Shown one piece after another: positions 1 through 27,108 of a stretch of DNA of 37,252 nucleotides. Position numbers and translations under genes: made by a program. The DNA lies in the IMG/VR virus record IMGVR_UViG_2563366981_000002, positions 1-37,252 of that record; one strand, 5' to 3'. Each line of letters opens with the position of its first letter. Position 1 is the stretch's first letter. A model generated the notes under the pieces. The model was not told the origin of the DNA, ran no database searches, and was given only the letters and a program-made list of their open reading frames with translations. Origin of the DNA: a virus (taxonomy: Duplodnaviria; Heunggongvirae; Uroviricota; Caudoviricetes).

Positions 1-1053
1 TTACGGGGTAATGCCAACCGCTGCCGCCACTTTGTCGCCACTTGGCAGCGTTGCCAGAGGATTGAAACGGAGCGCCGTTTCCAGATGATCCGGTGCCAGA
101 TGTGCGTAACGCATCGTCATTTTTATATCGTGATGTCCGAGAATTTTTTGTAAGGCCAGGATGTTTCCACCCGACATCATGAAGTGCGCTGCAAACGTAT
201 GGCGCAGAACGTGTGTGAGTTGACCGCGAGGGAGCACGATAGACGTTTTTTCCATCACGGATAAAAATTGAAAATAGCAGTCTGTGAAGAAATTGAACCC
301 ATCAAGCGCCATGATCTCTTCGTAAAGCTCTTTACTGATAGGGATGCTTCTGTTTTTCTTCCCCTTCGTTCTTACAAAGGTAATTCGGTATTTGGTCACC
401 TGTGAACGAGTAAGATTTACGGCTTCTCGCCAGCGTGCGCCTGTGCTTAAGCATATCTTAACTACCAGTGCCAGAATTGGGTCCTGACGTTTGCAATCAG
501 CCAGTAATTCAACAATCTGCTCATGGGTAAGCCATGCCATCTCTTTTTCTGCGATGGTGAATTTTCGCATGTTCTCCAGTGGGTTCGGATACGACCATTC
601 GCCCAGGCGGGATAGTTCGCTAAAAACACTACTAAGATAGCTTTGCTCCAGGTTAATGGTGACCGGGCTTGCTCCTTTCTTCCATTTTTCGCTGAAGTAG
701 ATCTCTCCTGTCAGGCGTTTATCTCGATAGTGGGCAAACATTTTAGAGGTGAGATCGGTTGCAAGGGGATTGCCCAGAGCGTCAACTATCAACAGCAATT
801 TGTCATAGACATGCTGCCCAGCTGTCAGAGATTTACCATGTAGTTTGAACCATAGCTCAACCACGTCTTTCAGTGTTCGACGATCCACTGATTCACCCAG
901 CCAGGGCTTTGCTTCGGTTTCTTCCATCGTGTGACGCTCAAAAGCCAGAGCTTCACCTTTGGTGGCGAATTGTTTACGCACACGACGTCCACTACGTCCC
1001 GCGGGGTAACATTCGCATAGCCATTTTCCTGTGGTGAGTTTTCGTACTGCCAT
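1..1053 (-). CDS. int: tyrosine integrase (P2-type)
   Basis: 350-aa ORF; C-terminal catalytic signature (...HVLRHTFAAHFMMSGGNILALQKILGHHDIKMTMRYAHL...); first gene at prophage left end; RBS GGAGGG 9 nt upstream of ATG. Confidence 0.9.
   Translation of the reverse strand: MAVRKLTTGKWLCECYPAGRSGRRVRKQFATKGEALAFERHTMEETEAKPWLGESVDRRTLKDVVELWFKLHGKSLTAGQHVYDKLLLIVDALGNPLATDLTSKMFAHYRDKRLTGEIYFSEKWKKGASPVTINLEQSYLSSVFSELSRLGEWSYPNPLENMRKFTIAEKEMAWLTHEQIVELLADCKRQDPILALVVKICLSTGARWREAVNLTRSQVTKYRITFVRTKGKKNRSIPISKELYEEIMALDGFNFFTDCYFQFLSVMEKTSIVLPRGQLTHVLRHTFAAHFMMSGGNILALQKILGHHDIKMTMRYAHLAPDHLETALRFNPLATLPSGDKVAAAVGITP
19..40. repeat. putative attachment core copy (attL), inside the 3' end of int
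   Basis: CGCTGCCGCCACTTTGTCGCCA; matches 34398-34419 with one mismatch. Confidence 0.55.
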
Positions 1054-2801: not shown

Positions 2802-3743
2802 TTAAACCCTTTTTCTAATTATTCCTTTAACTTTATTATTAAATTCCAAATCTTCTTTATCGCATTCAAAGCTATATTTTGTGTTTTCAACGCGGATGCG
2901 ATTGTTTGGAAGTTTAAATATGTCTCTAAAAGTAAATTCTCCGTTAATAGATACTAACCATAGACCATCGCTAAGATACTCCTCTTTGCTAATGATATAT
3001 GAATCATTTGCGGAATTAACTATATAGGGATGTTTTAGATTTTGAGGTAAAATTTCGCTCGAAACGATTAATTCTCTTTGATCAGTAAGTTTGCCGTCAC
3101 GTAGATCATAGCAGTCTAATGTAAGCAACCCACTTAGCTTTGTTTGATTGGAATGCCCCTTACCAAAAGATAACCACTCGAGAGACACTCCTGTTTCTAA
3201 ACAGCATTGGATGATCCAGTCTGCCGGAAAAATGTCTCGCATGTATCGTGTAGCTAATGTGCTTTTTGAGATACCAAGGTGATCGGCTAAGGCTTGGCGC
3301 GTTTTGTAACCGTAAGCCTTAACAATTCGCTCTATTGCTGCTTTACCCCCTCGAGTGAAATCCATGTGGTTTTCATTATCGAACTTTATCGTGGGGGTGT
3401 GAACTTCATTGCAAAATTCATCTGCAGACTGTTTTTCAGCATGCCGTTCTGGCGAAGGAACTGGCACTCCTTCTTCAGCATCTAAACCAAATGCTAACCA
3501 TTCGATTGATGCGCCAGTTTCCATTGAACATATAACAACCCAATCAGCAGGGAAGGTATCGCGTGCATATCTGTTAGCCATTGTACTTTGTGAAATACCA
3601 AGGTGGTTACAGAATGCTTGGCGTGATTTGAAACCATAGGCCATGAGTATTCTCTCAATGACTTTTTGCCCTCCTCGATTCTGCATGACCATGGCTTTCA
3701 GATGATCTTCAATATGGCGAAATGTGATTTTATTAGTTGACAT
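2802..3743 (-). CDS. CI-type immunity repressor with tandem duplicated HTH domain and S24/LexA-like C-terminal domain
   Basis: Two internal repeats (…ERILMAYGFKSRQAFCNHLGISQSTMANRYARDTFPADWVVICSMETGASIEWLAFG / …ERIVKAYGYKTRQALADHLGISKSTLATRYMRDIFPADWIIQCCLETGVSLEWLSFG) resembling the 186 CI N-terminal fold; C-terminus has GEFTF motif like lambda CI; divergent from Apl/Cox-like gene. Confidence 0.75.
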   Translation of the reverse strand: MSTNKITFRHIEDHLKAMVMQNRGGQKVIERILMAYGFKSRQAFCNHLGISQSTMANRYARDTFPADWVVICSMETGASIEWLAFGLDAEEGVPVPSPERHAEKQSADEFCNEVHTPTIKFDNENHMDFTRGGKAAIERIVKAYGYKTRQALADHLGISKSTLATRYMRDIFPADWIIQCCLETGVSLEWLSFGKGHSNQTKLSGLLTLDCYDLRDGKLTDQRELIVSSEILPQNLKHPYIVNSANDSYIISKEEYLSDGLWLVSINGEFTFRDIFKLPNNRIRVENTKYSFECDKEDLEFNNKVKGIIRKRV

Positions 3744-5957: not shown

Positions 5958-6184
5958 TGGCTGATGCAATGGATCTCGTACAGCAGCGCGTTGAAGAAGA
6001 ACGCCAGCGCCATATCCGTGCTGCCCGTGCCAGAACGCCGGGCGTGTCACGCGTGCTTTGCATTGAATGTGAAGCGCCAATTCCGCCAGCAAGACGCCGC
6101 GCCATTCCGGGAGTGCAGCTTTGCATTACCTGCCAGGAAATAGCAGAGCTGAAAGGCAAACATTACAACGGAGGTGCTGTATGA
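5957..6184 (+). CDS. TraR/DksA-family C4 zinc-finger protein
   Basis: CIECEAPIP...CITCQ four-cysteine motif in a 75-aa protein; typical P2-like early gene. Confidence 0.7.
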   Translation: MADAMDLVQQRVEEERQRHIRAARARTPGVSRVLCIECEAPIPPARRRAIPGVQLCITCQEIAELKGKHYNGGAV

Positions 6185-7038
6185 GCACCATCCTGAAATG
6201 GGCGGGTAATAAAACCGCCGTTATGTCCGAACTGAAAAAATACCTTCCTGCTGGCCCGCGACTGGTTGAACCTTTCGCGGGTTCCTGTGCAGTGATGATG
6301 GAGACGGATTACCCCAGCTATCTGGTAGCGGATATTAATCCTGATTTAATCAACCTCTATAAAAAGGTTGCTGCTGATTGTGAGGTGTTTATATCTCGCG
6401 CCAGAATTTTGTTTGAGGAAGCAAACAGTGAGCTGGCTTATTACAACATAAGGCAGGAGTTTAATTACTCAACTGAAATTACTGATTTCATGAAATCGGT
6501 ATATTTCCTGTATCTCAATCGTCATGGTTACCGTGGGTTATGTCGCTATAACAAGAGCGGGCATTTCAACATTCCCTACGGTAATTATAAAAAACCGTAT
6601 TTCCCTGAAAAAGAAATTCGCGCATTTGCAGAGAAAGCCCAGCGGGCAACGTTTATCTGCGCCAGCTTTGATGAAACGCTGGCGATGTTGAAGGCGGGGG
6701 ATGTGGTGTATTGCGATCCGCCGTATGACGGTACGTTTTCCGGCTATCACACTGATGGCTTCACTGAGGATGACCAGTATCACCTGGCATCCGTTCTTGA
6801 ACATCGATCATCTGAAGGTCATCCGGTCATTGTTTCTAACAGTGACACATCCCTGATTCGTTCGCTGTATCGCAATTTCACTCACCACTACATCAAGGCA
6901 AAACGCAGCATCGGCGTGTCGGCTGGCGAGAGTAAATCTGCAACAGAAATCATTGCTGTTTCCGGGGCGCGCTGCTGGGTGGGATTTGATCCTTCGCGTG
7001 GCGTGGATAGTTCTGCTGTGTACGAGGTGCGTGTATGA
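6181..7038 (+). CDS. dam: DNA adenine methyltransferase (Dam-like)
   Basis: [16 protein letters not shown] and DPPY motifs; ATGA overlap with the upstream gene. Confidence 0.85.
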
Positions 7039-9449
7039 GTCATGACGATATGAGCAACTCTAGCGGCTTTAACGAGGCCGCAGCAGCATTTTCATGGAAC
7101 GGCCCGAAAAAGGCCATTAACCCTTATCTGGACCCGGCGGAAGTTGCGCCGGAGTCTGCACTTTCAAACATGATCACTCTGTACGCTGCCGATAACGAGC
7201 AGGAACAGCTGCGCCGCGATGCACTGAGTGAGCAGGTCTGGGAGCGTTATTTCTTTAATGAATCCCGTGATCCTGTCCAGCGCGAAATGGAGCAGGATAA
7301 GCTCATTAGCCGCGCAAAGCTTGCGCATGAGCAGCAGCGTTTTAACCCGGACATGGTCATTCTGGCAGATGTCAGCGCCCAGCCTACCCACATCAGCAAG
7401 CCGCTGATGCAACGTATCGAATACTTCAGTAGCCTGGGCAGGCCAAAGGCTTATTCCCGCTATTTGCGTGAGACGATTAAGCCATGTCTGGAGCGACTGG
7501 ATTGTGTACGCGACAGTCAGCTATCCGCTTCTTTCCGTTTTATGGCAAGCCATCAAGGGCTTGAGGGCCTGCTGATCCTGCCTGAAATGAGTCAGGATCA
7601 GGTAAAACGCCTGTCCACCCTGGTAGCAGCGCATATGAGCATGTGTCTTGAGGTCGCTTGTGGTGATTTGTATGCCACCGATGACGTTAAGCCAGAAGAA
7701 ATCCGCAAGGCATGGGAAAAGGTGGCAGCGGAAACCCTGCGTCTGGATGTTATCCCGCCTGCGTTTGAGAAACTTCGTCGGAAAAGAAACCGCCGCAAAC
7801 CAGTGCCCTATGAACTCATACCGGGTTCGATGGCACGTATGCTTTGCGCCGACTGGTGGTATCGAAAATTGTGGAAGATGCGTTGCGAATGGCGGGAAGA
7901 GCAGTTGCGTGCTGTCTGTCTGGTCAGCAAAAAAGCATCTCCCTATGTCAGCTATGAAGCAGTGACGCATAAACGTGAGCAGCGCCGCAAGTCGCTGGAG
8001 TTTTTCCGTTCTCATGAATTGGTGAACGAAGACGGAGACACGCTGGATATGGAAGATGTGGTAAACGCCAGCAGCAGCAACCCGGCACATCGCCGAAATG
8101 AGATGATGGCTTGCGTTAAAGGTCTGGAGCTTATCGCGGAAATGCGTGGTGACTGCGCCGTTTTCTACACTATCACCTGTCCGTCACGTTTCCATTCCAC
8201 GCTAAATAACGGCAGGCCCAACCCGACCTGGACAAATACGACGGTAAGACAAAGCAGTGATTATCTGGTCGGCATGTTTGCTGCATTTCGTAAGGCGATG
8301 CACAAAGCCGGATTGCGCTGGTATGGCGTGCGGGTGGCTGAGCCGCATCATGACGGTACAGTTCACTGGCACCTGTTGTGTTTTATGCGCAAAAAAGATC
8401 GCCGCACCATTACTGCTTTGTTGCGTAAGTTTGCCATTCGTGAAGACCGCGAGGAGCTGGGTAATAACACTGGGCCGCGCTTTAAGTCTGAGCTGATTAA
8501 TCCGCGCAAAGGAACGCCGACAAGCTACATCGCGAAATATATCAGTAAGAACATTGACGGGCGTGGTCTGGCTGGCGAGATCAGCAAGGAAACGGGTAAA
8601 TCTCTGCGTGATAACGCTGAATACGTGAATGCCTGGGCGTCTCTGCATCGTGTTCAGCAATTCCGCTTCTTTGGCATTCCGGGGCGTCAGGCTTACCGTG
8701 AACTGCGATTGCTGGCTGGTCAGGCGGCAAGGCAACAGGGGGACAAAAAAGCAGGTGCGCCGGTACTGGATAACCCGCGCCTTGATGCAATCCTGGCTGC
8801 TGCTGATGCTGGTTGTTTTGCCACCTACATCATGAAGCAGGGCGGCGTACTGGTTCCCCGCAAATATCACCTCATCAGAACTGCTTATGAAATCAACGAA
8901 GAACCGACCGCATATGGCGATCACGGTATTCGTATTTATGGCATCTGGTCACCCATTGCAGAGGGCAAGATCTGCACTCATGCGGTGAAGTGGAAAATGG
9001 TTCGTAAGGCCGTTGACGTTCAGGAGGCGGCAGCCGACCAGGGCGCTTGCGCCCCTTGGACTCGTGGCAATAACTGTCCCCTTGCTGAAAATTTGAACCA
9101 ACAAGGGAAAGACAAATCAGCTGATGGGGATACCAGAACGGATATCACCCGCATGGATGACAAGGAGTTGCACGATTACCTGCACAGTATGAGCAAAAAA
9201 GAGCGCCGGGAACTGGCAGCAAGATTACGCCTGGTTAAACCGAAACGGCGTAAAGACTACAAACAGCGAATTACAGAGTATCAGCGTCAGCAGCTCGTCT
9301 ATGAGCTGAAGTCCAGAGGATTTGATGGCAGCGAGAAAGAGGTCGATTTGCTCCTTCGCGGTGGCAGTATTCCGTCAGGAGCAGGCCTGCGTATCTTCTA
9401 TCGGAACCAGCGTTTGCAGGAAGATGATAAGTGGCGGAACCTGTATTAA
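7035..9449 (+). CDS. A: replication initiation protein A (rolling-circle nickase)
   Basis: 804-aa ORF with HUH-like motif ([10 protein letters not shown]); conserved position after early genes. Confidence 0.85.
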
Positions 9450-9602: not shown

Positions 9603-9791
9603 ATGCAGGACTATTTTTTGGAGTCTTTGAAGCTCCAGCGCATTGATTTTTTTCTTAAGCTTGTAGCGGCTAGTGAGTGTAGTGATGAAGAGAAGGGGCT
9701 GGCTTTGCAGTGGGTTTCTGAACTAACAGATGAACTCATGGCAAAAATCAGAACCCACGAATACAACCGCTCAATGGATGTCATCAGTTGA
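9603..9791 (+). CDS. small SOS-regulated protein (possible Tum-like antirepressor; inference)
   Basis: 62-aa ORF with AGGAGG RBS directly downstream of the LexA box; the longer 9501 start is rejected because the box lies inside it. Confidence 0.5.
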   Translation: MQDYFLESLKLQRIDFFLKLVAASECSDEEKGLALQWVSELTDELMAKIRTHEYNRSMDVIS

Positions 9792-9801
9792 GGTGACTTT
9801 T

Positions 9802-10035
9802 ATGCGCATTGAAATAATGATCGATAAAGAGCAGAAGATTAGCCAGTCTACCCTGGACGCCCTTGAATCCGAGCTTTACCGTAATCTGCGCCCCCTGTAT
9901 CCCAAAACGGTAATTCGTATCCGCAAAGGTAGCTCTAACGGTGTGGAACTGACCGGACTGCAACTGGACGAAGAAAGGAAGCAAGTGATGAAAATTATGC
10001 AGAAGGTGTGGGAAGACGACAGCTGGCTGCATTAA
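9802..10035 (+). CDS. DinI-like protein
   Basis: 77-aa protein (MRIEIMIDKEQKISQSTLDALESELYRNL...WEDDSWLH) with DinI-like length and motifs; GAGGTG RBS. Confidence 0.8.
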   Translation: MRIEIMIDKEQKISQSTLDALESELYRNLRPLYPKTVIRIRKGSSNGVELTGLQLDEERKQVMKIMQKVWEDDSWLH

Positions 10036-10157: not shown

Positions 10158-10877
10158 ATGACAACTATTAACAAGCATGGGTTATCTAGAACAATTCCTG
10201 AACCTGTAAAACTGGAGGTAAGGCAGCGCTGTGGCTTTGGTTGCGTTGTTTGTGCTTCTCCCATTGTTGAGTATGAGCATGTAATTCCCACATACGCTGA
10301 TGCAAAGGAGCACTCTCCAAATGCAATAGCACTACTTTGTCCTACGTGCCATGCGAAAGTAACGAAACGTCTTTACTCTAAAGAGAAAATAATTAAAGCA
10401 ATGGAATCTCCTGCAGCCTTACAAAAAGGGAATGTGGCCGATATATTGGACTTTTCTGATAGGCATCCAACAATAATATTTGGTGGTGCGACGTTTGAAT
10501 CCTGTACTGTACCAATAATGTTTCAAAATGAGCCATTGTTAACCATTGAAAAAGAAAATAATGCTTTTCTTATTTCGGGTAAATTTTACGATAGTCAAGG
10601 TATTGTTAATCTTGAATTAATTAAGAATGAGTGGGTTTGTAGTGCAAGGCATTGGGATGTTCAGGTTGTTGGTCCTAGAATAACTATTATAGAAAAAAGG
10701 AAAGGTCCTCGTTTAATTATTAAAGTTGATGCGCCTGAAAGATTGATTGTGGAAAGATTAGATATGTTGGTTAAGGGGACTCGGATTGTAGGAGACGAAC
10801 ACAAGCTAAGAGTCGGTCCACATCAATTTCACAACTGTGGAGTTTCAAATTGCAATATTGGTTTCTGCTTTGGCTAA
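10158..10877 (+). CDS. HNH-endonuclease-domain protein with unknown C-terminal domain
   Basis: N-terminal CGFGCVVC...EYEHVIP...N...CPTCH (CxxC, EH, N, CxxCH HNH signature); markedly AT-rich; adjacent to cos-like motif. Confidence 0.75.
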   Translation: MTTINKHGLSRTIPEPVKLEVRQRCGFGCVVCASPIVEYEHVIPTYADAKEHSPNAIALLCPTCHAKVTKRLYSKEKIIKAMESPAALQKGNVADILDFSDRHPTIIFGGATFESCTVPIMFQNEPLLTIEKENNAFLISGKFYDSQGIVNLELIKNEWVCSARHWDVQVVGPRITIIEKRKGPRLIIKVDAPERLIVERLDMLVKGTRIVGDEHKLRVGPHQFHNCGVSNCNIGFCFG

Positions 10878-11059: not shown

Positions 11060-11078
11060 GGCGTGGCGGGGATACGAG
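11060..11078. other. cos-like motif (putative cohesive-end site)
   Basis: GGCGTGGCGGGGATACGAG followed by GCGCGC; resembles the recalled P2/186 cohesive-end sequence; correct position and orientation relative to the portal gene. Confidence 0.4.
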
Positions 11079-11166
11079 CGCGCGCAATAGGGTTATGTAC
11101 AATAAATTTTTGACGATCTTCGAGTGTTATTAGCTTGAGGCTGTCAGGGAAAATGAATACAATAAG

Positions 11167-11198
11167 AAGCGCCTAGCAGAATGTTACTAGGCGCTTCG
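11167..11198. terminator. perfect hairpin between converging transcription units
   Basis: GAAGCGCCTAG, 10-nt loop, CTAGGCGCTTC; T-rich flank on the minus strand. Confidence 0.35.
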
Positions 11199-11230: not shown

Positions 11231-11338
11231 TTATCTTTTTGATTTCTTCTTCGTATCATCGTGATCGAATACTTGGCGGGTAGGCGGCTTGCTGGGTGGT
11301 GGCGGCGGCGGTAAATTAGATTTCTCATTTTTGCTCAT
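11231..11338 (-). CDS. polyproline micro-protein C (35 aa)
   Basis: MSKNEKSNLPPPPPPSKPPTRQVFDHDDTKKKSKR; AGGAAAA RBS; ATG overlaps the stop of micro-ORF B. Confidence 0.4.
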   Translation of the reverse strand: MSKNEKSNLPPPPPPSKPPTRQVFDHDDTKKKSKR

Positions 11339-11462
11339 CTTTATTTTTCCTATTTTTTGGATCATTGCCATAGCTTTCTCTAACTAACCGAGTGATTGGC
11401 GGTTTAGGTGGTGGTGGTGGTGGTGGTGCTTCATTTTTTTTAGGATTTTTGTGTTCGGTCAT
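11325..11462 (-). CDS. polyproline micro-protein B (45 aa)
   Basis: MTEHKNPKKNEAPPPPPPPKPPITRLVRESYGNDPKNRKNKDEQK; AAGGA RBS 8 nt upstream; paralogous to A and C. Confidence 0.45.
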   Translation of the reverse strand: MTEHKNPKKNEAPPPPPPPKPPITRLVRESYGNDPKNRKNKDEQK

Positions 11463-11577
11463 TTTTATCGTCCTTTCTGTCTCTTCGTAGTTGCCTTGCT
11501 TTTGAATCATCTTCAATAACGATCCTTCTTGCGGGTGGAGTAGGCTGAGGAGGTGGTGGCGGTAACGGTTTGGTCAT
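11440..11577 (-). CDS. polyproline micro-protein A (45 aa)
   Basis: MTKPLPPPPPQPTPPARRIVIEDDSKARQLRRDRKDDKNDRTQKS; AGGAG RBS 7 nt upstream; TAATG overlap with the membrane protein gene. Confidence 0.45.
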   Translation of the reverse strand: MTKPLPPPPPQPTPPARRIVIEDDSKARQLRRDRKDDKNDRTQKS

Positions 11578-12227
11578 TAAGTTCTCCTGACATTTTCAAT
11601 AGGTATTATCAAATAGTTAGGGGCGTTATTTTTCCGCGGTGATGCTGCATCTAAATCAGCTAAAAGAAATATGACTACTGCTGCGATAATTGGAATCCAT
11701 GACCAGACAAGATACTTTGTTGACTCAAATAGTTTACTGGAACGTTCTTCATTGATATTACTGTTCCAGCTAGCACACTCTCTGATTTCTTGATGAATAA
11801 ACTCCCAAAGTTTATTATCAGGGTTATAACTTTCATCGTATGTAAGTCCATTGTCATCGCAATATTTTTTATATTTCACTTCGTAACTAATCAGATCTAT
11901 GTGATAATCATGCAATGCTTTAGGTGCAGGGCAATACTTAAATTCATTTCCCCATATGACTTGTTTCAACAGAATTGATGATACAAGAACTAAGCCAAAT
12001 GAAATTGCGGTACATAAAAATACTAGGCAAGCTAGCCTTGGGTGGGATTCATAAGATGTGTTTTTGGCGAGATAAGTGAGTATAGTTGCGGTAATGACAA
12101 CTAATCCGAATTCGGCTTGAGCGCGAGTATGTATCTTGTCTTTATTCTCAATTTCTGAGAAATAAAGTTTTTCGTAAAATTCTAATGCTTTATCCTTTTT
12201 CATTTTTAGATTCAGTGTGATGTCCAT
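11577..12227 (-). CDS. accessory membrane protein (three predicted TM helices)
   Basis: 216-aa ORF, AT-rich, hydrophobic segments at about residues 40-55, 65-87 and 175-195; lies between the cos-like motif and the portal gene. Confidence 0.7.
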   Translation of the reverse strand: MDITLNLKMKKDKALEFYEKLYFSEIENKDKIHTRAQAEFGLVVITATILTYLAKNTSYESHPRLACLVFLCTAISFGLVLVSSILLKQVIWGNEFKYCPAPKALHDYHIDLISYEVKYKKYCDDNGLTYDESYNPDNKLWEFIHQEIRECASWNSNINEERSSKLFESTKYLVWSWIPIIAAVVIFLLADLDAASPRKNNAPNYLIIPIENVRRT

Positions 12228-12248
12228 GTATCAAACATATCACGATAA

Positions 12249-12278
12249 CAAAAAAAGAAAAGCCGCAATTCTGCGGCT
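12249..12278 (-). terminator. rho-independent terminator downstream of the portal gene
   Basis: AGCCGCA / TGCGGCT stem, then TTTTCTTTTTTTG on the minus strand. Confidence 0.5.
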
Positions 12279-12296: not shown

Positions 12297-13325
12297 CTAT
12301 AATTCGTAATTTGTGAACCCTATCGCGTTTTTATCCAGCCATTTATTAAGCTCCTCAAAGCGTCTCTGAAGCGGAATAAGTTCATTACGAACGAATACGC
12401 GGCTGGCCTTCTCCACATCCCCAAATCCCCCAACATTATTAGGCATAATCCCCATCATTTGCGGTGGCACACGATGCGCCGCCATCATGTCATCCCGGCT
12501 CACGTTCTTGATGTTTAGAAACTCATCCTTCGCCGCGACTTCTGACAGAGGAATGATCTGAAGCCCATCCTTTTTGCCGTTAGGCGAGTACATAAACAGG
12601 TTGCGGAAGTTACCCGGTCCTTTGGCGCTTTTCATCGCATTGCGGAGGTTGTTCACATCCTCCTGGTTCTGCGCGGCATCGGTCATGTACATGATGAAGC
12701 CTGCATGACTACCGTTAATGTAATACTTCCGGCGGAACAGCGTGGCGGACTCGTTGAGCAAAGCGGATGGGATGGCAGAAAGATAGCCGGGCAGGCCGTA
12801 GATCTCCTGATTAATATCCGGTTCCATCAGATGAAAAATGCTGCCTTTCGTGAACTGATACGGCTGGGTTGTCATACCGTATTGCACAAACCAGTAGGTA
12901 TCCAGGTCTAACCCGCGTCGGGTATATTTTGCCAGAGCAGGCTCAAGGGCGATAACTTCACCGAAGCGGTTCGTGCGTTTCTCCAGATAAGCGTTACCAA
13001 ATACCAGATAGTCCTGCACAAAACGTGAAAAAGCCTGCTGGCTGAGCAGCGGGTGAGGGATGTAGGTACTGGTCAGTATGTTGCATTTCACCGCAATTGG
13101 TGAACTGTGATGCACGGCAGCGCGGAAGGTGCGCGCCAGTCCGTCAAAGCTTACTGGCGGCTCATACCAGTGATCTGTCTGTACGCATTCCACATAGTCC
13201 AGCAGTTCTCGGCGGTCCAGAACAGGAACGGGATCGCCGAAGCTGAATGCTTCGGCTGTAGTTTGACTTTTAAGCTGGATCTGTTTCGTCGCCGAAGCGC
13301 GGTTCTTCTTACTCTTTCCCATCAA
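12297..13325 (-). CDS. Q: portal protein
   Basis: 342-aa ORF, leftward, cos-proximal, ATGA-coupled to terminase; P2 Q-like position. Confidence 0.9.
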   Translation of the reverse strand: MMGKSKKNRASATKQIQLKSQTTAEAFSFGDPVPVLDRRELLDYVECVQTDHWYEPPVSFDGLARTFRAAVHHSSPIAVKCNILTSTYIPHPLLSQQAFSRFVQDYLVFGNAYLEKRTNRFGEVIALEPALAKYTRRGLDLDTYWFVQYGMTTQPYQFTKGSIFHLMEPDINQEIYGLPGYLSAIPSALLNESATLFRRKYYINGSHAGFIMYMTDAAQNQEDVNNLRNAMKSAKGPGNFRNLFMYSPNGKKDGLQIIPLSEVAAKDEFLNIKNVSRDDMMAAHRVPPQMMGIMPNNVGGFGDVEKASRVFVRNELIPLQRRFEELNKWLDKNAIGFTNYEL

Positions 13326-15088
13326 AAAATCTCCACAATATTGCTGGTATTGGCGGACTCGCCCTGCAGCGGTTCGTTAAACAGTGCGTGCATTGTTGCC
13401 CAGGCCAGATCGGCGTGACTGGCTTCTTCGCTGCGGCTGGCTTCATAGGTCGGGCGGTTGCCGCTGGCGGTGGTGGCGCGACGGATTGCCATAAATGACT
13501 GCGCTATGTCGGTGTGTCCGGCGTCAAACTCCAGACGGCGGTGGCTGATAATGTCGTAGGCCTTGAGTACCAGGGCGTTTTTAACATTGGGGTTGTAGAC
13601 AAACTCCCGGACGGCAGGAAAGAACGCTTTCACGTTCTCGTAAACCCCGTGGCCGACCCCAGTTGAGTCGATGCCGATGTAGGTCACGTTGTACTGTTCG
13701 GTCAGTTTTTTGATGGCGTCAGCCTGGGCGCGGAAGTCCATCCCGCGCCACTGGTGACGCTCAAGAATGCGGAACTTACCGCCCGGTACGGCTGGCGGTG
13801 CCACCACCACGCATCCGGCACTGTCGCCGTTCTGCGTACCTTTTGCCGGGTCATAACCGATCCATACTTCGCGCCAGCCAAACGGGCGCAGGGCCAGTGC
13901 ATGAAAGTCGGTCCAGACTTCCCAGCTGTCCACCATGCACGCCTGCAATTCGCTGAGCGGGAACACAGATGCGAGATCGTCAACGAATTCGCACATCAGC
14001 AGGTTCTGGTATTCGTCCGGGCTGTACTCCATGCGCAACTGGTCGAGGTCGAACAGGTTACAGCCGCCGCGTACCGCATCTTCCACGGTGACTATCTGGC
14101 GGTATTGCCCGTCTGCGCACAGCAGGCCGGGGGCCAGATTGCTGTGGGACAGGTCGATGTCCACCTTATCGGCTTTGTTGCGCCCACGGTTGAACAGCGC
14201 ACCGGACCAGAACGGATAAGCACTGTGTGTCAGGCTGGATGGCGTGGAAAAATAGGTCTGTCGCCATTTCTTGTGAATAGCCATCCCGGAAGCCACTTTG
14301 CGCAGCTCCTGGAATTTCGGTATCCAGAAATATTCATCCAGATACAGGTTGCCGTGGTAACTCTGGGCCGTGCGGGCATTGGTGCCGAGGAAATACAGTG
14401 TGGCCCCGTTGGGAAGCACCATCGGATCGCCTTTCAGCTCCACCTCCACTTCTTTGGCGAAGTCGATGATGTACTGCTTAAAGACGTGAGCCTGTGCCTT
14501 ACTGGCAGAAAGGAAAATCTGGTTACGTCCGGTAAGCAGGGCGTCAATCAGGGCTTCACGGGCAAAGTAAAAGGTCGCACCGATCTGGCGTGACTTCAGC
14601 AGGTTGCGGATGCGGTTGGTTTTTCCGGCTTCCCACCAGTGGCGCTGATAGTTGAACATGGAGGAATGGAAGATTTCTTCCAGCTTCTCAATCTGTTCAT
14701 CGGTGAAAACGTTCTTTTCCGGCTGACGACGCGGGCCTTTGTTGCGGTTGGCGACGTTAGGGTTTAAGTCGGCTTCGTTGCCGCCATTGTTAAACTTGCC
14801 GATCCGCGCATGGCGCTCCGACTGGCGCGCCAGCAGGTCAATCTCTTTGAAATCTTTCCCTTCTTTGTGCTCCTTCATAATGAGCTGGCAGTAGCGTGCG
14901 GCGGTGGTGAGCTGCATCTGATCCAGCGGCCCATAGTCACCCCACTTGTCGCGTTTTTTCCAGCTGTGAACGGTTGCAACTTTCTCGCCCAGCATTTCAG
15001 CAATGCGGGCTACGCGGTATCCCTGAAAGTACAGCAGCATGGCCTGCCGACGGGGATCGAGATCTGCGGGTGTCAGTGTGGTGTTCAT
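13322..15088 (-). CDS. P: terminase large subunit (ATPase)
   Basis: 588-aa ORF divergent from the capsid operon; P2 P-like position and size. Confidence 0.9.
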   Translation of the reverse strand: MNTTLTPADLDPRRQAMLLYFQGYRVARIAEMLGEKVATVHSWKKRDKWGDYGPLDQMQLTTAARYCQLIMKEHKEGKDFKEIDLLARQSERHARIGKFNNGGNEADLNPNVANRNKGPRRQPEKNVFTDEQIEKLEEIFHSSMFNYQRHWWEAGKTNRIRNLLKSRQIGATFYFAREALIDALLTGRNQIFLSASKAQAHVFKQYIIDFAKEVEVELKGDPMVLPNGATLYFLGTNARTAQSYHGNLYLDEYFWIPKFQELRKVASGMAIHKKWRQTYFSTPSSLTHSAYPFWSGALFNRGRNKADKVDIDLSHSNLAPGLLCADGQYRQIVTVEDAVRGGCNLFDLDQLRMEYSPDEYQNLLMCEFVDDLASVFPLSELQACMVDSWEVWTDFHALALRPFGWREVWIGYDPAKGTQNGDSAGCVVVAPPAVPGGKFRILERHQWRGMDFRAQADAIKKLTEQYNVTYIGIDSTGVGHGVYENVKAFFPAVREFVYNPNVKNALVLKAYDIISHRRLEFDAGHTDIAQSFMAIRRATTASGNRPTYEASRSEEASHADLAWATMHALFNEPLQGESANTSNIVEIF

Positions 15089-25084: not shown

Positions 25085-25701
25085 TGCGCGAGGATACCAT
25101 GAATACAGTCACACTGAATGAGGCCCTACTGGCGACTGTCGCGGGTGAAGTCGTCATATACAACTACGACAGCAAGACGCGGGAATATCTTTCCACATCA
25201 ACTGAATATCTTGCGGTTGGCGTCGGCATCCCGGCATGTTCTTGTTTAGATGCACCAGTTACACATAAAGCTGGTTATGCAATCTGCCGTTCTGCAGATT
25301 TTAACTCATGGGAATATGTGCCAGACCATCGCGGTGAAATCATCTATAGCACCGAAACAGGAGAATCGAAAGAAATCACAGCTCTGGGTGATTACCCTGA
25401 AAATACAACCACTATCGCCCCGTTAACGCCATATGATAAATGGGATGGTGAGAAATGGGTGACGAATACTGAGGCACAGCATAGCGCCGCAGTAGAAGCG
25501 GCAGAAGCACAGCGCCAGTCACTGATTGATGCAGCAATGGCTTCCATCAGTCTGATTCAACTGAAATTACAGGCCGGACGGAAGCTGACGCAGGCAGAAA
25601 CAACCCGTCTAAACGCTGTGCTGGATTACATTGATGCGGTGACGGCAACAGATACCAGAACCGCGCCGGATGTCATCTGGCCTGAACTGCCGGAGGCGTA
25701 G
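25084..25701 (+). CDS. G: tail fibre assembly protein (current orientation)
   Basis: 205-aa ORF, TAATG-coupled to H. Confidence 0.75.
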   Translation: MREDTMNTVTLNEALLATVAGEVVIYNYDSKTREYLSTSTEYLAVGVGIPACSCLDAPVTHKAGYAICRSADFNSWEYVPDHRGEIIYSTETGESKEITALGDYPENTTTIAPLTPYDKWDGEKWVTNTEAQHSAAVEAAEAQRQSLIDAAMASISLIQLKLQAGRKLTQAETTRLNAVLDYIDAVTATDTRTAPDVIWPELPEA

Positions 25702-26122
25702 GCCATTCAATATCTGGCGCACCGGAAGTATCGACCAGTTCTAGTGCGTCCAGATAATCCAGCCACAAATTATATTGCGCCAGTTCCTCACCTTTCAGGC
25801 GACCAATCGCCGCTTTACCAGGCCATTGCTTACTGTTTATGTATTCGTTGACCTGATTAATCAATTGCTGCTTTTCCAATTCGGCTGCGGCAATTTGTTC
25901 CTCATGAGTTGGCGGTGGAATATCAATCCATGCAGGCATTCCGTCGATGACACCTCTGTATTTTCCTTCTGGTGCTTCCTTCATAAATTCGGCAGCAACA
26001 GTGTCGTCAATTTTGATTCCATCATCGGGCCATTCGCCGGATTCCTGATAAGCGATTTTAAGCTCCACAGGGAAAAACGCATTTTTATCGGCACTGAAAA
26101 TATATTTCTGCATTTCTACCAT
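25673..26122 (-). CDS. alternative tail fibre assembly protein (inverted cassette)
   Basis: 149-aa minus-strand ORF with the same W-rich C-terminal motif as the plus-strand assembly protein. Confidence 0.7.
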   Translation of the reverse strand: MVEMQKYIFSADKNAFFPVELKIAYQESGEWPDDGIKIDDTVAAEFMKEAPEGKYRGVIDGMPAWIDIPPPTHEEQIAAAELEKQQLINQVNEYINSKQWPGKAAIGRLKGEELAQYNLWLDYLDALELVDTSGAPDIEWPTPPAVQAR

Positions 26123-26486
26123 CCTATCGAAATATAACTGAATCTGTATTGCTGTGAGATATCACTGGTTGCCACACGCCACGCTGAATTACTGATATGT
26201 TCAAAATTTACAGACAAAACCTGCGGGGCAGGAATCGACGGGTCTGACTGAACGGCATCAGACATAACACTGACTGAAACCATCGGCTGATTAGGGAATG
26301 GTATAGGGAAGTGTCCACTGATAAAGCGGGTCGTGTTTCCTGCAAAAGTGCCAAACTGAACAATATATCCACCTGGTAGCCTGAACCATCCCGAACCAGA
26401 AGCGAATGCTCCCATATCCGGTATCTGATTATCTCCTGTGCCCACATCCCTTTTCGCCGCTTCTCCCAAACCAACGTTTAAGAAAA
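26116..26486 (-). CDS. alternative tail fibre C-terminal cassette (no start of its own; expressed only after inversion)
   Basis: Minus-strand frame encodes ...FLNVGLGEAAKRD... across the right recombination site, matching the ...YLGLGEGSA... junction in H. Confidence 0.6.
26461..26486. repeat. right recombination site of the invertible segment
   Basis: TTCTCCCAAACCAACGTTTAAGAAAA, a 26-bp imperfect dyad resembling gix/hix-type sites, just upstream of the invertase gene. Confidence 0.6.
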
Positions 26487-26541
26487 TGAAGAGATAACGG
26501 CTAACTGGCATCATTTCCGGTTTCTATTCAGGGGGATGATC

Positions 26542-27108
26542 ATGCTTATTGGATATGTACGCGTGTCAACAAATGACCAGAACACCGATTTGCAACGCAA
26601 TGCGCTGAACTGCGCGGGATGTGAGCGGATTTTTGAGGATAAAATCAGTGGCACTAAGTCCGACAGACCGGGGCTGAAAAAACTGCTCAGGACACTATCG
26701 GCAGGAGACACGCTGGTTGTCTGGAAGCTGGACAGGTTGGGGCACAGTATGCGGCATCTTGTTACGCTGATAGAAGAGTTGCGCCAGCGTGGTGTGAATT
26801 TCCGAAGCCTGACTGACAGTATTGATACCAGTACCCCAATGGGCCGTTTCTTTTTTCATGTCATGGGTGCCCTGGCTGAAATGGAACGCGAACTGATAGT
26901 TGAACGTACCAAGGCAGGGCTGGCTGCAGCTCGTGCTAAAGGCAGAGTAGGTGGACGCCGTCCTAAGTTGACCACTGAACAGTGGGCACAGATTGGACGT
27001 TTACTCGAGGCCGGAGAATCAAGACAGCGTATTGCACTGATTTTTGATGTAGGCGTTTCTACCATTTATAGAAAATTTCCGGCAAATAAGAGCAATGAAT
27101 CCCCCTGA
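26542..27108 (+). CDS. serine DNA invertase (Hin/Gin/Cin family)
   Basis: N-terminus MLIGYVRVSTNDQNTDLQ with the catalytic Ser motif; C-terminal HTH; adjacent to the invertible segment. Confidence 0.9.
   Translation: MLIGYVRVSTNDQNTDLQRNALNCAGCERIFEDKISGTKSDRPGLKKLLRTLSAGDTLVVWKLDRLGHSMRHLVTLIEELRQRGVNFRSLTDSIDTSTPMGRFFFHVMGALAEMERELIVERTKAGLAAARAKGRVGGRRPKLTTEQWAQIGRLLEAGESRQRIALIFDVGVSTIYRKFPANKSNESP

Follow-up and report, generated by a model that had tools for sequence, protein, structure and literature searches.

An accessory operon of a P2/186-like prophage encodes a three-helix membrane protein and three conserved proline-rich micro-peptides

We analyzed the 37,252-nucleotide stretch of the IMG/VR virus record IMGVR_UViG_2563366981_000002 (hereafter, the window), which is a P2/186-like prophage, and concentrated on a small operon at positions 11231-12227 that encodes a membrane protein followed by three overlapping, proline-rich micro-ORFs (small open reading frames), designated A, B and C. 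Together they constitute an apparently undescribed two-part module, the peptide component of which is without a described counterpart. All elements of the operon are located on the minus strand, between cos and the portal gene Q, and are bracketed by two predicted terminators:

12261-12278, minus strand: intrinsic terminator after Q, a 7-bp stem AGCCGCAGAATTGCGGCT followed by TTTCTTTTTT (terminator scan)
12234-12242, minus strand: candidate extended -10 promoter TGaTATGTT, with the predicted transcription start at ~12227
11577-12203, minus strand: membrane protein gene, 208 amino acids (aa) from the conserved Met9; the ATG at 12227 gives 216 aa
11440-11577, minus strand: micro-ORF A, 45 aa, MTKPLPPPPPQPTPPARRIVIEDDSK..., with the Shine-Dalgarno sequence AGGAG
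11325-11462, minus strand: micro-ORF B, 45 aa, MTEHKNPKKNEAPPPPPPPKPPITRLVRES...
11407-11428: (GGT)7 microsatellite, the source of the CCA proline codons of B (Tandem Repeats Finder)
11231-11338, minus strand: micro-ORF C, 35 aa, MSKNEKSNLPPPPPPSKPPTRQVFDHDDTKKKSKR
11166-11197, minus strand: intrinsic terminator ending the operon, a 13-bp stem GAAGCGCCTAG...CTAGGCGCTTC followed by a T-rich tail

An earlier model-made note on this DNA, the sequence-only reading, had described a 216-aa protein with three transmembrane (TM) segments. The ORF at 11577-12227 indeed has 216 codons for amino acids and three hydrophobic helices are modelled, but the alignment identifies Met9 as the start kept across relatives, which gives 208 aa; the Prokaryotic Genome Annotation Pipeline (PGAP) likewise annotates the gene as a 627-nt coding sequence. 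The micro-ORFs are 45, 45 and 35 aa long, as had been stated, and the first of them is coupled to the membrane gene by a TAATG overlap of 1 nt; the remaining overlaps are longer than a shared stop and start, being 23 nt for A/B and 14 nt for B/C. The +1 frame step once ascribed to every junction holds for A to B and for B to C, but the step from the membrane gene to A is -1. Scored as duplex energy with the 3' end of 16S rRNA, each micro-ORF has a ribosome-binding site of its own, again as claimed (-7.4, -5.3 and -4.2 kcal/mol for A, B and C, respectively; background inside the membrane ORF, -0.96), and the membrane gene has none (+0.4 kcal/mol).

The only upstream block kept in all seven aligned enterobacterial loci, which include P4-like and non-prophage contexts, is (G/A)TG(A/C)TATGTT, and we infer that the conserved TGnTATGTT element is a candidate working promoter. 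The predicted transcription start at ~12227 coincides exactly with the upstream ATG that is specific to E. coli; a leaderless 216-aa form of the membrane protein is therefore possible in the E. coli lineage only. The terminator at 12261-12278 would insulate the module from the phage late operon. The operon appears to be self-sufficient, with its own transcription unit, because in E. coli strain 639 no other cargo separates the DinI-like gene from the portal gene, and in Vibrio vulnificus the fused form with its trailing micro-ORF stands among small unrelated genes. The search for structured RNAs gave no Rfam match at E-values up to 1.

The three peptides share a layout but differ in detail. 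Uninterrupted proline runs comprise 5, 7 and 6 residues in A, B and C, so that the six or seven prolines noted earlier apply to B and C and not to A. The tails are position-specific: ..RRVVIEDDSK in A, ..RL(V/I)(R/K)E.. in B and ..R.AFDHDD.KKK in C. None of the peptides has a hydrophobic N-terminus, signal peptide, lipobox or cysteine. Annotation captures them poorly: PGAP calls one of the three micro-ORFs in the window, with a wrong start, and B is extended to 58-64 aa by ORF listing or PGAP (60-61 aa in the PGAP form), of which only the 45-aa start is conserved.

Comparative data were obtained mostly from IMG/VR contigs and protein-to-contig look-ups, and a scan of species-representative genomes yielded one locus only. 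A word-based protein search returned 17 relatives of the membrane protein with 53-100% identity, all 208-216 aa long except for one 130-aa fragment; the sources of this clade are Pantoea stewartii, Cedecea neteri, Enterobacter, a metagenome scaffold and 14 IMG/VR contigs. The module was found in only 6 of 5,426 complete E. coli genomes, always adjoining the portal gene and with variable cargo on its other side. Micro-ORFs are present in every recovered locus of the window's clade, and the pattern recurs beside homologs of the membrane protein, a check that the sequence-only reading had suggested. In most loci all three are present in an unchanged order and have recognizable positional orthologs, even where the identity of the membrane protein falls to 53-57%, and orthologs of A occur in all enterobacterial loci. 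Locus L019 has only A and C. Proline-rich but interrupted tracts were observed in L018, L020 and L022; interrupted orthologous tracts read PTPPTPPTPP, PPQPPQPPQ and PPSSPQPPQAP.

Purifying selection acts on the peptide that each micro-ORF encodes, in the frame of that ORF. In Nei-Gojobori counts over twelve diverged pairs, the ratio of nonsynonymous to synonymous changes per site (pN/pS) in the sense frame was 0.47 for A, 0.55 for B and 0.25 for C, the most constrained of the three, compared with 0.30 for the membrane gene. Four of the other five frames gave 0.9-2.0; the antisense frame that shares the wobble position gave 0.40-0.64, and its second rank is the usual artefact. The paralogs A, B and C have only ~47-57% nucleotide identity to one another, and selection on the peptides, proposed earlier from the diverged DNA, is upheld. 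The residues after the proline run, with the pattern R-x-hydrophobic-x-E/D, are conserved, R and E being invariant in alignment A2. The run itself is free in length: it varies from 4 to 12 residues across relatives, runs of 5-12 prolines being common in the family, and near-identical alleles of B have 4, 5, 6, 7, 8 or 9 prolines, always in frame. Insertions and deletions in the run are always multiples of three.

These data bear directly on whether the three ORFs arose by frameshifts from a longer gene that has decayed. Distant relatives do have one continuous ORF that ends in a single proline-rich module. Against this, the three ORFs persist with their own starts down to 53% identity of the membrane protein and with low pN/pS, each ORF of the window has its own Shine-Dalgarno sequence, the indels keep the frame, and the frame relations vary: A and B of L022 are in one frame, and the A to B step of L004 is -1 and not +1. 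The fragment explanation is effectively refuted by these comparisons, and we assign it a negligible probability; the earlier view that this is not a broken gene stands. Since the frame relations vary between loci, neither a recently broken gene nor programmed frameshifting accounts for the arrangement. The candidate pseudogene or single frameshifted ancestor was rejected on conservation, pN/pS and variable frame relations, and programmed frameshifting on the locus-dependent frame steps, the shared frame of A and B in L022, and the presence of a Shine-Dalgarno sequence and ATG for each ORF.

Two poly-glycine/hydrophobic ORFs on the plus strand, at 11289-11387 and 11392-11490, mirror the proline and Lys/Asp codons of the micro-ORFs, and similar antisense poly-glycine-type ORFs were seen in other loci. 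They were considered as real genes and rejected: the sense frame has the lowest pN/pS, and the coding frame is fixed by the fused relatives described below. They are probably not genes.

A profile search of 1.84 billion representatives clustered at 50% identity (E-values up to 0.001) revealed at least 957 relatives of the membrane protein. In 52 of the 149 best relatives, the proline-rich module is fused in frame to the membrane protein through a linker of widely variable length, giving proteins of 230-310 aa. The module has a constant layout: a polar head, a proline tract, PPxR or PxPPxxR, and then x-[IVL]-x-[ED]. Many distant modules hold only PP pairs, such as PSTPKLPTPPPVRY. All 16 relatives outside the window's clade with inspected DNA carry the module, most of them with one to three separate peptide genes: (i) it is only fused in loci L047, L053 and L058, (ii) it is fused and accompanied by one separate micro-ORF in L042, L043, L045, L046, L049, L051 and L055, (iii) there is one separate micro-ORF in L008, L023, L024, L025 and L040, (iv) two in L039, L041 and L048, and (v) three in L052. 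Fused L046 and split L048 have matching modules and were both retrieved as relatives of one subgroup; judged from such loci, fused and split forms are shown to interchange over short evolutionary distances.

The fused genes have retained a feature expected of separate ones. A methionine stands just ahead of the polar head of the module in 47 of 52 fused forms, and in six fused genes it is preceded by an internal Shine-Dalgarno sequence of -5.9 to -12.2 kcal/mol (for instance AAGGAG, GAGGAG or GAAGGAGG), compared with a mean of -1.2 kcal/mol inside the same ORFs, which places them among the top 0-5% of codon positions. The fused gene of V. vulnificus (L055, 5001-5860) has a perfect internal AAGGAG ahead of the module methionine. 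Because both the methionine and the strong internal Shine-Dalgarno sequence are retained, production of the free peptide is probable throughout the family, including members in which a long protein also ends in it. The sequence-only reading had held that homologous loci with one continuous ORF would mark the micro-ORFs as pseudogene fragments. Such ORFs do occur in distant relatives, but their retained methionine and internal start site point away from a pseudogene.

Among the 149 best relatives, several long forms that lack a clear module end in T-, H- or A-rich strings; database proteins with such tails (for instance TATATTTT and HHRHHH) include P0077, P0110, P0114, P0127, P0136, P0148 and P0153. 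The tails are probably annotation artefacts, the gene caller having continued out of frame across the proline ORF.

Searched for with a degenerate DNA pattern, the C-type motif FDHDD(T/V)KK was found on 8 contigs among 2.9 million viral ones, and all 8 carry the membrane gene; as far as this motif can tell, the peptides are shown to be linked exclusively to the membrane protein. Given the fusions and this exclusive co-occurrence, a direct functional, probably physical, link between peptides and membrane protein is the best-supported step of our interpretation. Proline-rich ligands for the membrane protein had been one of three earlier suggestions and fit best, with the module fused in many relatives and the linkage at 8 of 8. 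Another of the three, ribosome-targeting proline-rich peptides, is unlikely, as the peptides are not cationic PRP repeats. Its broader form takes them for autonomous inhibitors of ribosomes or chaperones, similar to proline-rich antimicrobial peptides and directed against the host or an incoming phage. The peptides are proline-rich and cytoplasmic, and have a basic-hydrophobic patch (RRIVI, TRLV) after the run; yet they are of mixed charge with a conserved acidic motif, lack PRP repeats and an export signal, exist in fused forms, and their C-type motif was not found apart from the membrane gene. We regard this possibility as very improbable.

If the peptides act on the membrane protein, they could be assembly or activating subunits, a polyproline-II rod and short strand that would nucleate or bridge oligomers of the membrane protein in the manner of a proline-rich attachment domain (PRAD) and so give the active complex, whatever its activity. 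Fusion is easier to reconcile with a structural subunit than with a labile antidote, variation of the run from 4 to 12 prolines is what a rod or spacer would tolerate, one to three distinct paralogs are kept with position-specific tails, and sub-threshold matches to Pfam PRIMA1 recur. The latter, however, fall far short of the threshold and reflect proline composition, AlphaFold2 gives no docking, and the retained internal start site of the fused genes is left unexplained. This alternative has some weight but is unlikely.

Another alternative makes the micro-ORFs cis-acting sensors of translation state: stalling relieved by elongation factor P (EF-P) would set the translation or stability of the operon mRNA, and the peptides themselves would be unimportant. 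PPP motifs need EF-P, a requirement that is established, 5-12 consecutive prolines are common across the family, and the ORFs are overlapping and translationally coupled. A model based on stalling alone is nevertheless disfavoured, because the runs are interrupted in some orthologs (L018, L022) and often reduced to PP pairs in distant modules, the residues after the run are the most conserved with selection along the whole peptide, and the terminator after C leaves nothing downstream to regulate; in fused relatives, moreover, the module forms the C-terminus of a long protein. For the same reasons (interruptible runs, conserved downstream residues, terminator after C), the translation-state sensor of the sequence-only reading is unlikely to be the main explanation. 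We consider a purely cis-acting role improbable.

The AlphaFold2 model of the membrane protein (predicted local distance difference test score, pLDDT, 82.5) is all-helical, with four long helices, three of which have hydrophobic segments; a crude hydropathy scan detected only two of the three hydrophobic helices. A single-residue strand bridge joins the TM1-TM2 loop to the DLDxSSPRK motif located just after TM3. Residues 9-199 match PHROG 36961 (E 5.5e-22), whose function is unknown; P0203, P0100 and P0042, which are distant relatives, and the L008 protein match it as well. Neither the membrane protein nor its family gave a sequence match in Pfam, NCBIfam or the PDB, and no Pfam SLATT family was matched by the window protein. 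Among 148 family members, 6 matched PycTM models of PADLOC overall (5-6 in each of three models; best, P0042 at E 2.8e-06), and 1-3 matched each of the models for the reverse transcriptase (RT)-associated SLATT effector and for the 2TM effector of cyclic oligonucleotide-based anti-phage signalling systems (CBASS). A Pfam scan of the same set gave scattered membrane-protein noise only. A relationship of the family to SLATT-type membrane effectors is thus suggestive but faint. Peptides A, B and C had no match to PADLOC-DB v2.0.0 at E-values up to 1. Keyword searches of the literature found no described system of this organization, and the statement of the sequence-only reading that none was known is in accord with the Pfam, NCBIfam, PADLOC, PDB (for the window protein) and literature searches.

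The genomic contexts of relatives are diverse. Loci L005 and L006 occupy the P2 cos hotspot, the latter together with PIN, M78/HTH (helix-turn-helix) and restriction genes, and L007 carries a P4-type Psu gene. Further members are found in an Aeromonas lambdoid prophage, between two ParE/Phd toxin-antitoxin pairs, beside an inovirus and an OLD-family nuclease, and in a small islet with a DUF4145 gene. In V. vulnificus, the fused gene and a trailing micro-ORF lie among small unrelated genes (glyoxalase, acetyltransferases, DUF3709). The second, separate proline-rich ORF of L055 is followed by a repeat that resembles an integron attC/VCR (Vibrio cholerae repeat) site, and we infer that this locus looks like a chromosomal-integron-like cassette array. 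The locus L008 (2155-4274), from a metagenome-assembled genome of Campylobacterota, encodes a membrane protein with 25% identity and, overlapping its gene, one proline-rich ORF, MSNNDETPATPKESPPPPPPRHRRGYVKPPKKK. They are followed by a 129-aa gene and a 324-aa gene, which we take, by sequence reading alone, to be TIR-like and caspase-like; the PHROG families that these two genes match have unknown function. The core pair may plug into larger systems there. No cyclase, CD-NTase (cGAS/DncV-like nucleotidyltransferase) or reverse transcriptase adjoins the module in the window, L003, L005-L007, L055 or L058-L061.

According to PMC9122126, hotspots filled with anti-phage systems lie near cos between gpA and gpQ in P2-like phages and next to cos in P4-like satellites. 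The supplementary table of that paper gives no more than 'hypothetical' for several genes at one such locus, among them WP_061090207, the annotated form of micro-ORF B. Alternatively, the module could be a prophage 'moron' with a non-defence role, such as host fitness, an envelope function or post-segregational addiction. The evidence for defence is guilt by association only, toxin-antitoxin pairs are among the neighbors, and a membrane protein with a small partner also suits an addiction module. On the other side, the hotspot is dominated by anti-phage systems according to PMC9122126, the family recurs in unrelated defence-type contexts, and its faint similarity is to defence effectors. A non-defence role appears unlikely to us.

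Judged from the effector-like nature of the membrane protein and from the hotspot contexts, a role against phage would be the most likely biology. We propose, with confidence about evenly balanced between acceptance and doubt, that this P2-like prophage carries, in a cos-proximal cargo hotspot known for anti-phage systems, an autonomous accessory operon for an anti-phage membrane effector controlled by its own proline-rich peptides. The steps would be as follows: (i) the three-helix protein would be a membrane-damaging effector, faintly of the SLATT/PycTM pore type, (ii) the three peptides would be a detached, triplicated form of the C-terminal tail module fused in many relatives, (iii) the peptides would bind the membrane protein and control it, presumably being made in excess and restraining it, (iv) an infecting phage would upset the balance of peptides and effector and so release the effector, and (v) the membrane would be compromised and the infection aborted or excluded. 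Restraint is the preferred direction because the peptides have Shine-Dalgarno sequences and the membrane gene has none, a contrast that hints at stoichiometry, and because the peptides lack a hydrophobic segment.

Several observations weigh against an effector restrained by its peptides. The window membrane protein had no match in PADLOC-DB v2.0.0 at E-values up to 1, and the PycTM/SLATT signal is confined to ~4% of members, with scores little above Pfam membrane-protein noise. A crude positive-inside count (7.6 versus 3.4 K+R) weakly favours an N-in/C-out orientation; the fused tail would therefore be periplasmic, whereas free peptides devoid of a signal must be cytoplasmic, and this conflict matters for any model in which peptide and membrane protein bind. 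In an AlphaFold2 model of a natural fused relative, the proline module has a pLDDT of 51-68 and no confident docking. A covalently fused 'antitoxin' is awkward for a labile inhibitor. Finally, the family was found in 0 of 50,697 isolated phage genomes, and with only 6 of 5,426 E. coli genomes there is no phenotype to borrow from a studied phage.

A more specific version of the effector-and-peptide proposal would give the proline runs themselves a function. A role for EF-P-dependent polyproline translation in the operon would follow if phage-borne membrane effectors were governed by polyproline 'fuse' peptides whose production depends on EF-P and on uninterrupted translation. The peptide level would then reflect the translational state of the cell: a phage that shuts off or takes over translation would exhaust the short-lived peptides and the effector would fire, amounting to abortive infection by translation surveillance. 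The sensor would consist either of one to three overlapping micro-ORFs or of a product started internally within the effector gene. This version is speculative, and we think it doubtful.

The other features of the prophage are as follows:

1-1053, minus strand: integrase
2802-3743, minus strand: CI repressor
6121-7038: Dam methylase
7035-9449: 804-aa ORF, whose counterpart in near-identical E. coli prophages carries the annotation replication endonuclease
9730-10035: DinI-like gene
10158-10877, plus strand: HNH-type gene, 239 aa (Pfam HNH, E 2.4e-05; PHROG 6544, function unknown, E 2.5e-111)
11060-11078: cos-like site GGCGTGGCGGGGATACGAG, read from sequence
12297-13325, minus strand: portal gene Q
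13322-15088, minus strand: large terminase
26536-27108, plus strand: DNA invertase of the Hin/Cin serine type
after the invertase: host genes ybjL and ybjM

The cos-like site is one that we take to resemble the cohesive ends of P2/186, and a similar region also comes after the module in L005 and L007. The HNH-type gene and the module lie on opposite sides of cos; since the cargo at the position of the HNH-type gene varies among module-carrying strains, this gene is a separate passenger. The ORF of the CI repressor is listed at 313 aa and has two stretches of the CI HTH domain in Pfam; either its start is over-extended or the repressor is unusual. Between it and the integrase, two back-to-back ORFs on the minus strand (1143-1748, 201 aa, and 1750-2799, 349 aa) gave no Pfam or PADLOC match, and the longer has a weak match to PHROG 10040, of unknown function; they may represent a second cargo site of the prophage. 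The invertase gene adjoins oppositely oriented ORFs, including 25673-26514 on the minus strand, a layout suggestive of an invertible segment for tail fibres.

If the operon protects against phage, it would be a widespread and very compact defence module, with at least 957 clusters at 50% identity spread over Enterobacterales, Vibrionales, Aeromonadales and beyond, and its second component would belong to a class of genes mostly missed by annotation pipelines. The family is also a case for studying the evolution of small proteins, in which one module of ~35 aa takes the form of a fused tail, probably that of an internal-start product nested in a longer gene, and that of one to three free overlapping genes. 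It offers a natural test of whether polyproline tracts, and hence EF-P, act as regulatory elements in the conflict between phage and host. The artefactual T/H/A-rich extensions introduced by gene callers probably pollute protein databases.

Comparison of the module with known systems revealed partial similarities to several of them. In spanin pairs (Rz/Rz1 of lambda, lysB/lysC of P2), a small proline-rich ORF is embedded in, overlaps or follows a membrane gene, and the arrangements of one family (embedded, overlapped, separated or fused) convert into one another. The window family resembles them in its overlapped, separated and in-frame fused arrangements of a small proline-rich ORF. It differs in that (i) its micro-ORFs lack a signal peptide, lipobox and cysteine, (ii) its protein has three helices, and not a single N-terminal anchor, and (iii) its operon is located between cos and Q, and not in the lysis cassette, with up to three peptide genes.

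The methionine and strong internal Shine-Dalgarno sequence of fused relatives recall in-frame internal-start products such as lambda S105/S107, ClpB-79 and IF2-beta, and a single fused ORF is probably the source of two products, the long membrane protein and a free peptide from its C-terminus. Here, however, the short product comprises only the last 30-50 residues, and in other relatives the module became one to three separate genes. Arrest-peptide control (the EF-P-dependent CadC; leaders of the SecM, MifM and ApdA type) also involves short, mutually coupled ORFs, and long proline runs must slow ribosomes when EF-P is lacking. The window peptides differ from it in being conserved beyond an interruptible run, in having no regulated gene after the last ORF, and in that the module may be the C-terminal end of a 250-300-aa protein. 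In the PRAD-WAT (tryptophan amphiphilic tetramerization) pair, the PRAD peptide of PRiMA or ColQ threads through four tail helices of acetylcholinesterase. A short polyproline peptide with a helical partner is common to both cases; the weak Pfam PRIMA1 matches in the window family are compositional.

SLATT-type effectors (Pycsar PycTM, CBASS 2TM and RT-associated SLATT) are likewise small helical membrane proteins of defence and mobile contexts, with a presumed membrane-damaging action that we propose for the window family as well. The window module differs from them by lacking an adjacent cyclase, CD-NTase or reverse transcriptase partner, and they in turn have no proline-rich peptide, the constant partner in the window family. 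A type II-like toxin-antitoxin or abortive-infection pair is resembled in that the module is one predicted transcription unit between terminators, with peptides in every examined locus and a C motif that never occurs alone. Finally, the cargo of the P2/P4 cos hotspot, as exemplified in PMC9122126 by gop-beta-cII and by TIR+2TM+1TM of phage AC1, shares with the module the hotspot itself, a compact self-expressed operon and a membrane protein as presumed effector; it differs in having no homology to the module (PADLOC), the partners in the window being polyproline peptides of 35-45 aa. Taken together, the module is best filed with the prophage-hotspot membrane effectors of toxin-antitoxin-like kind.

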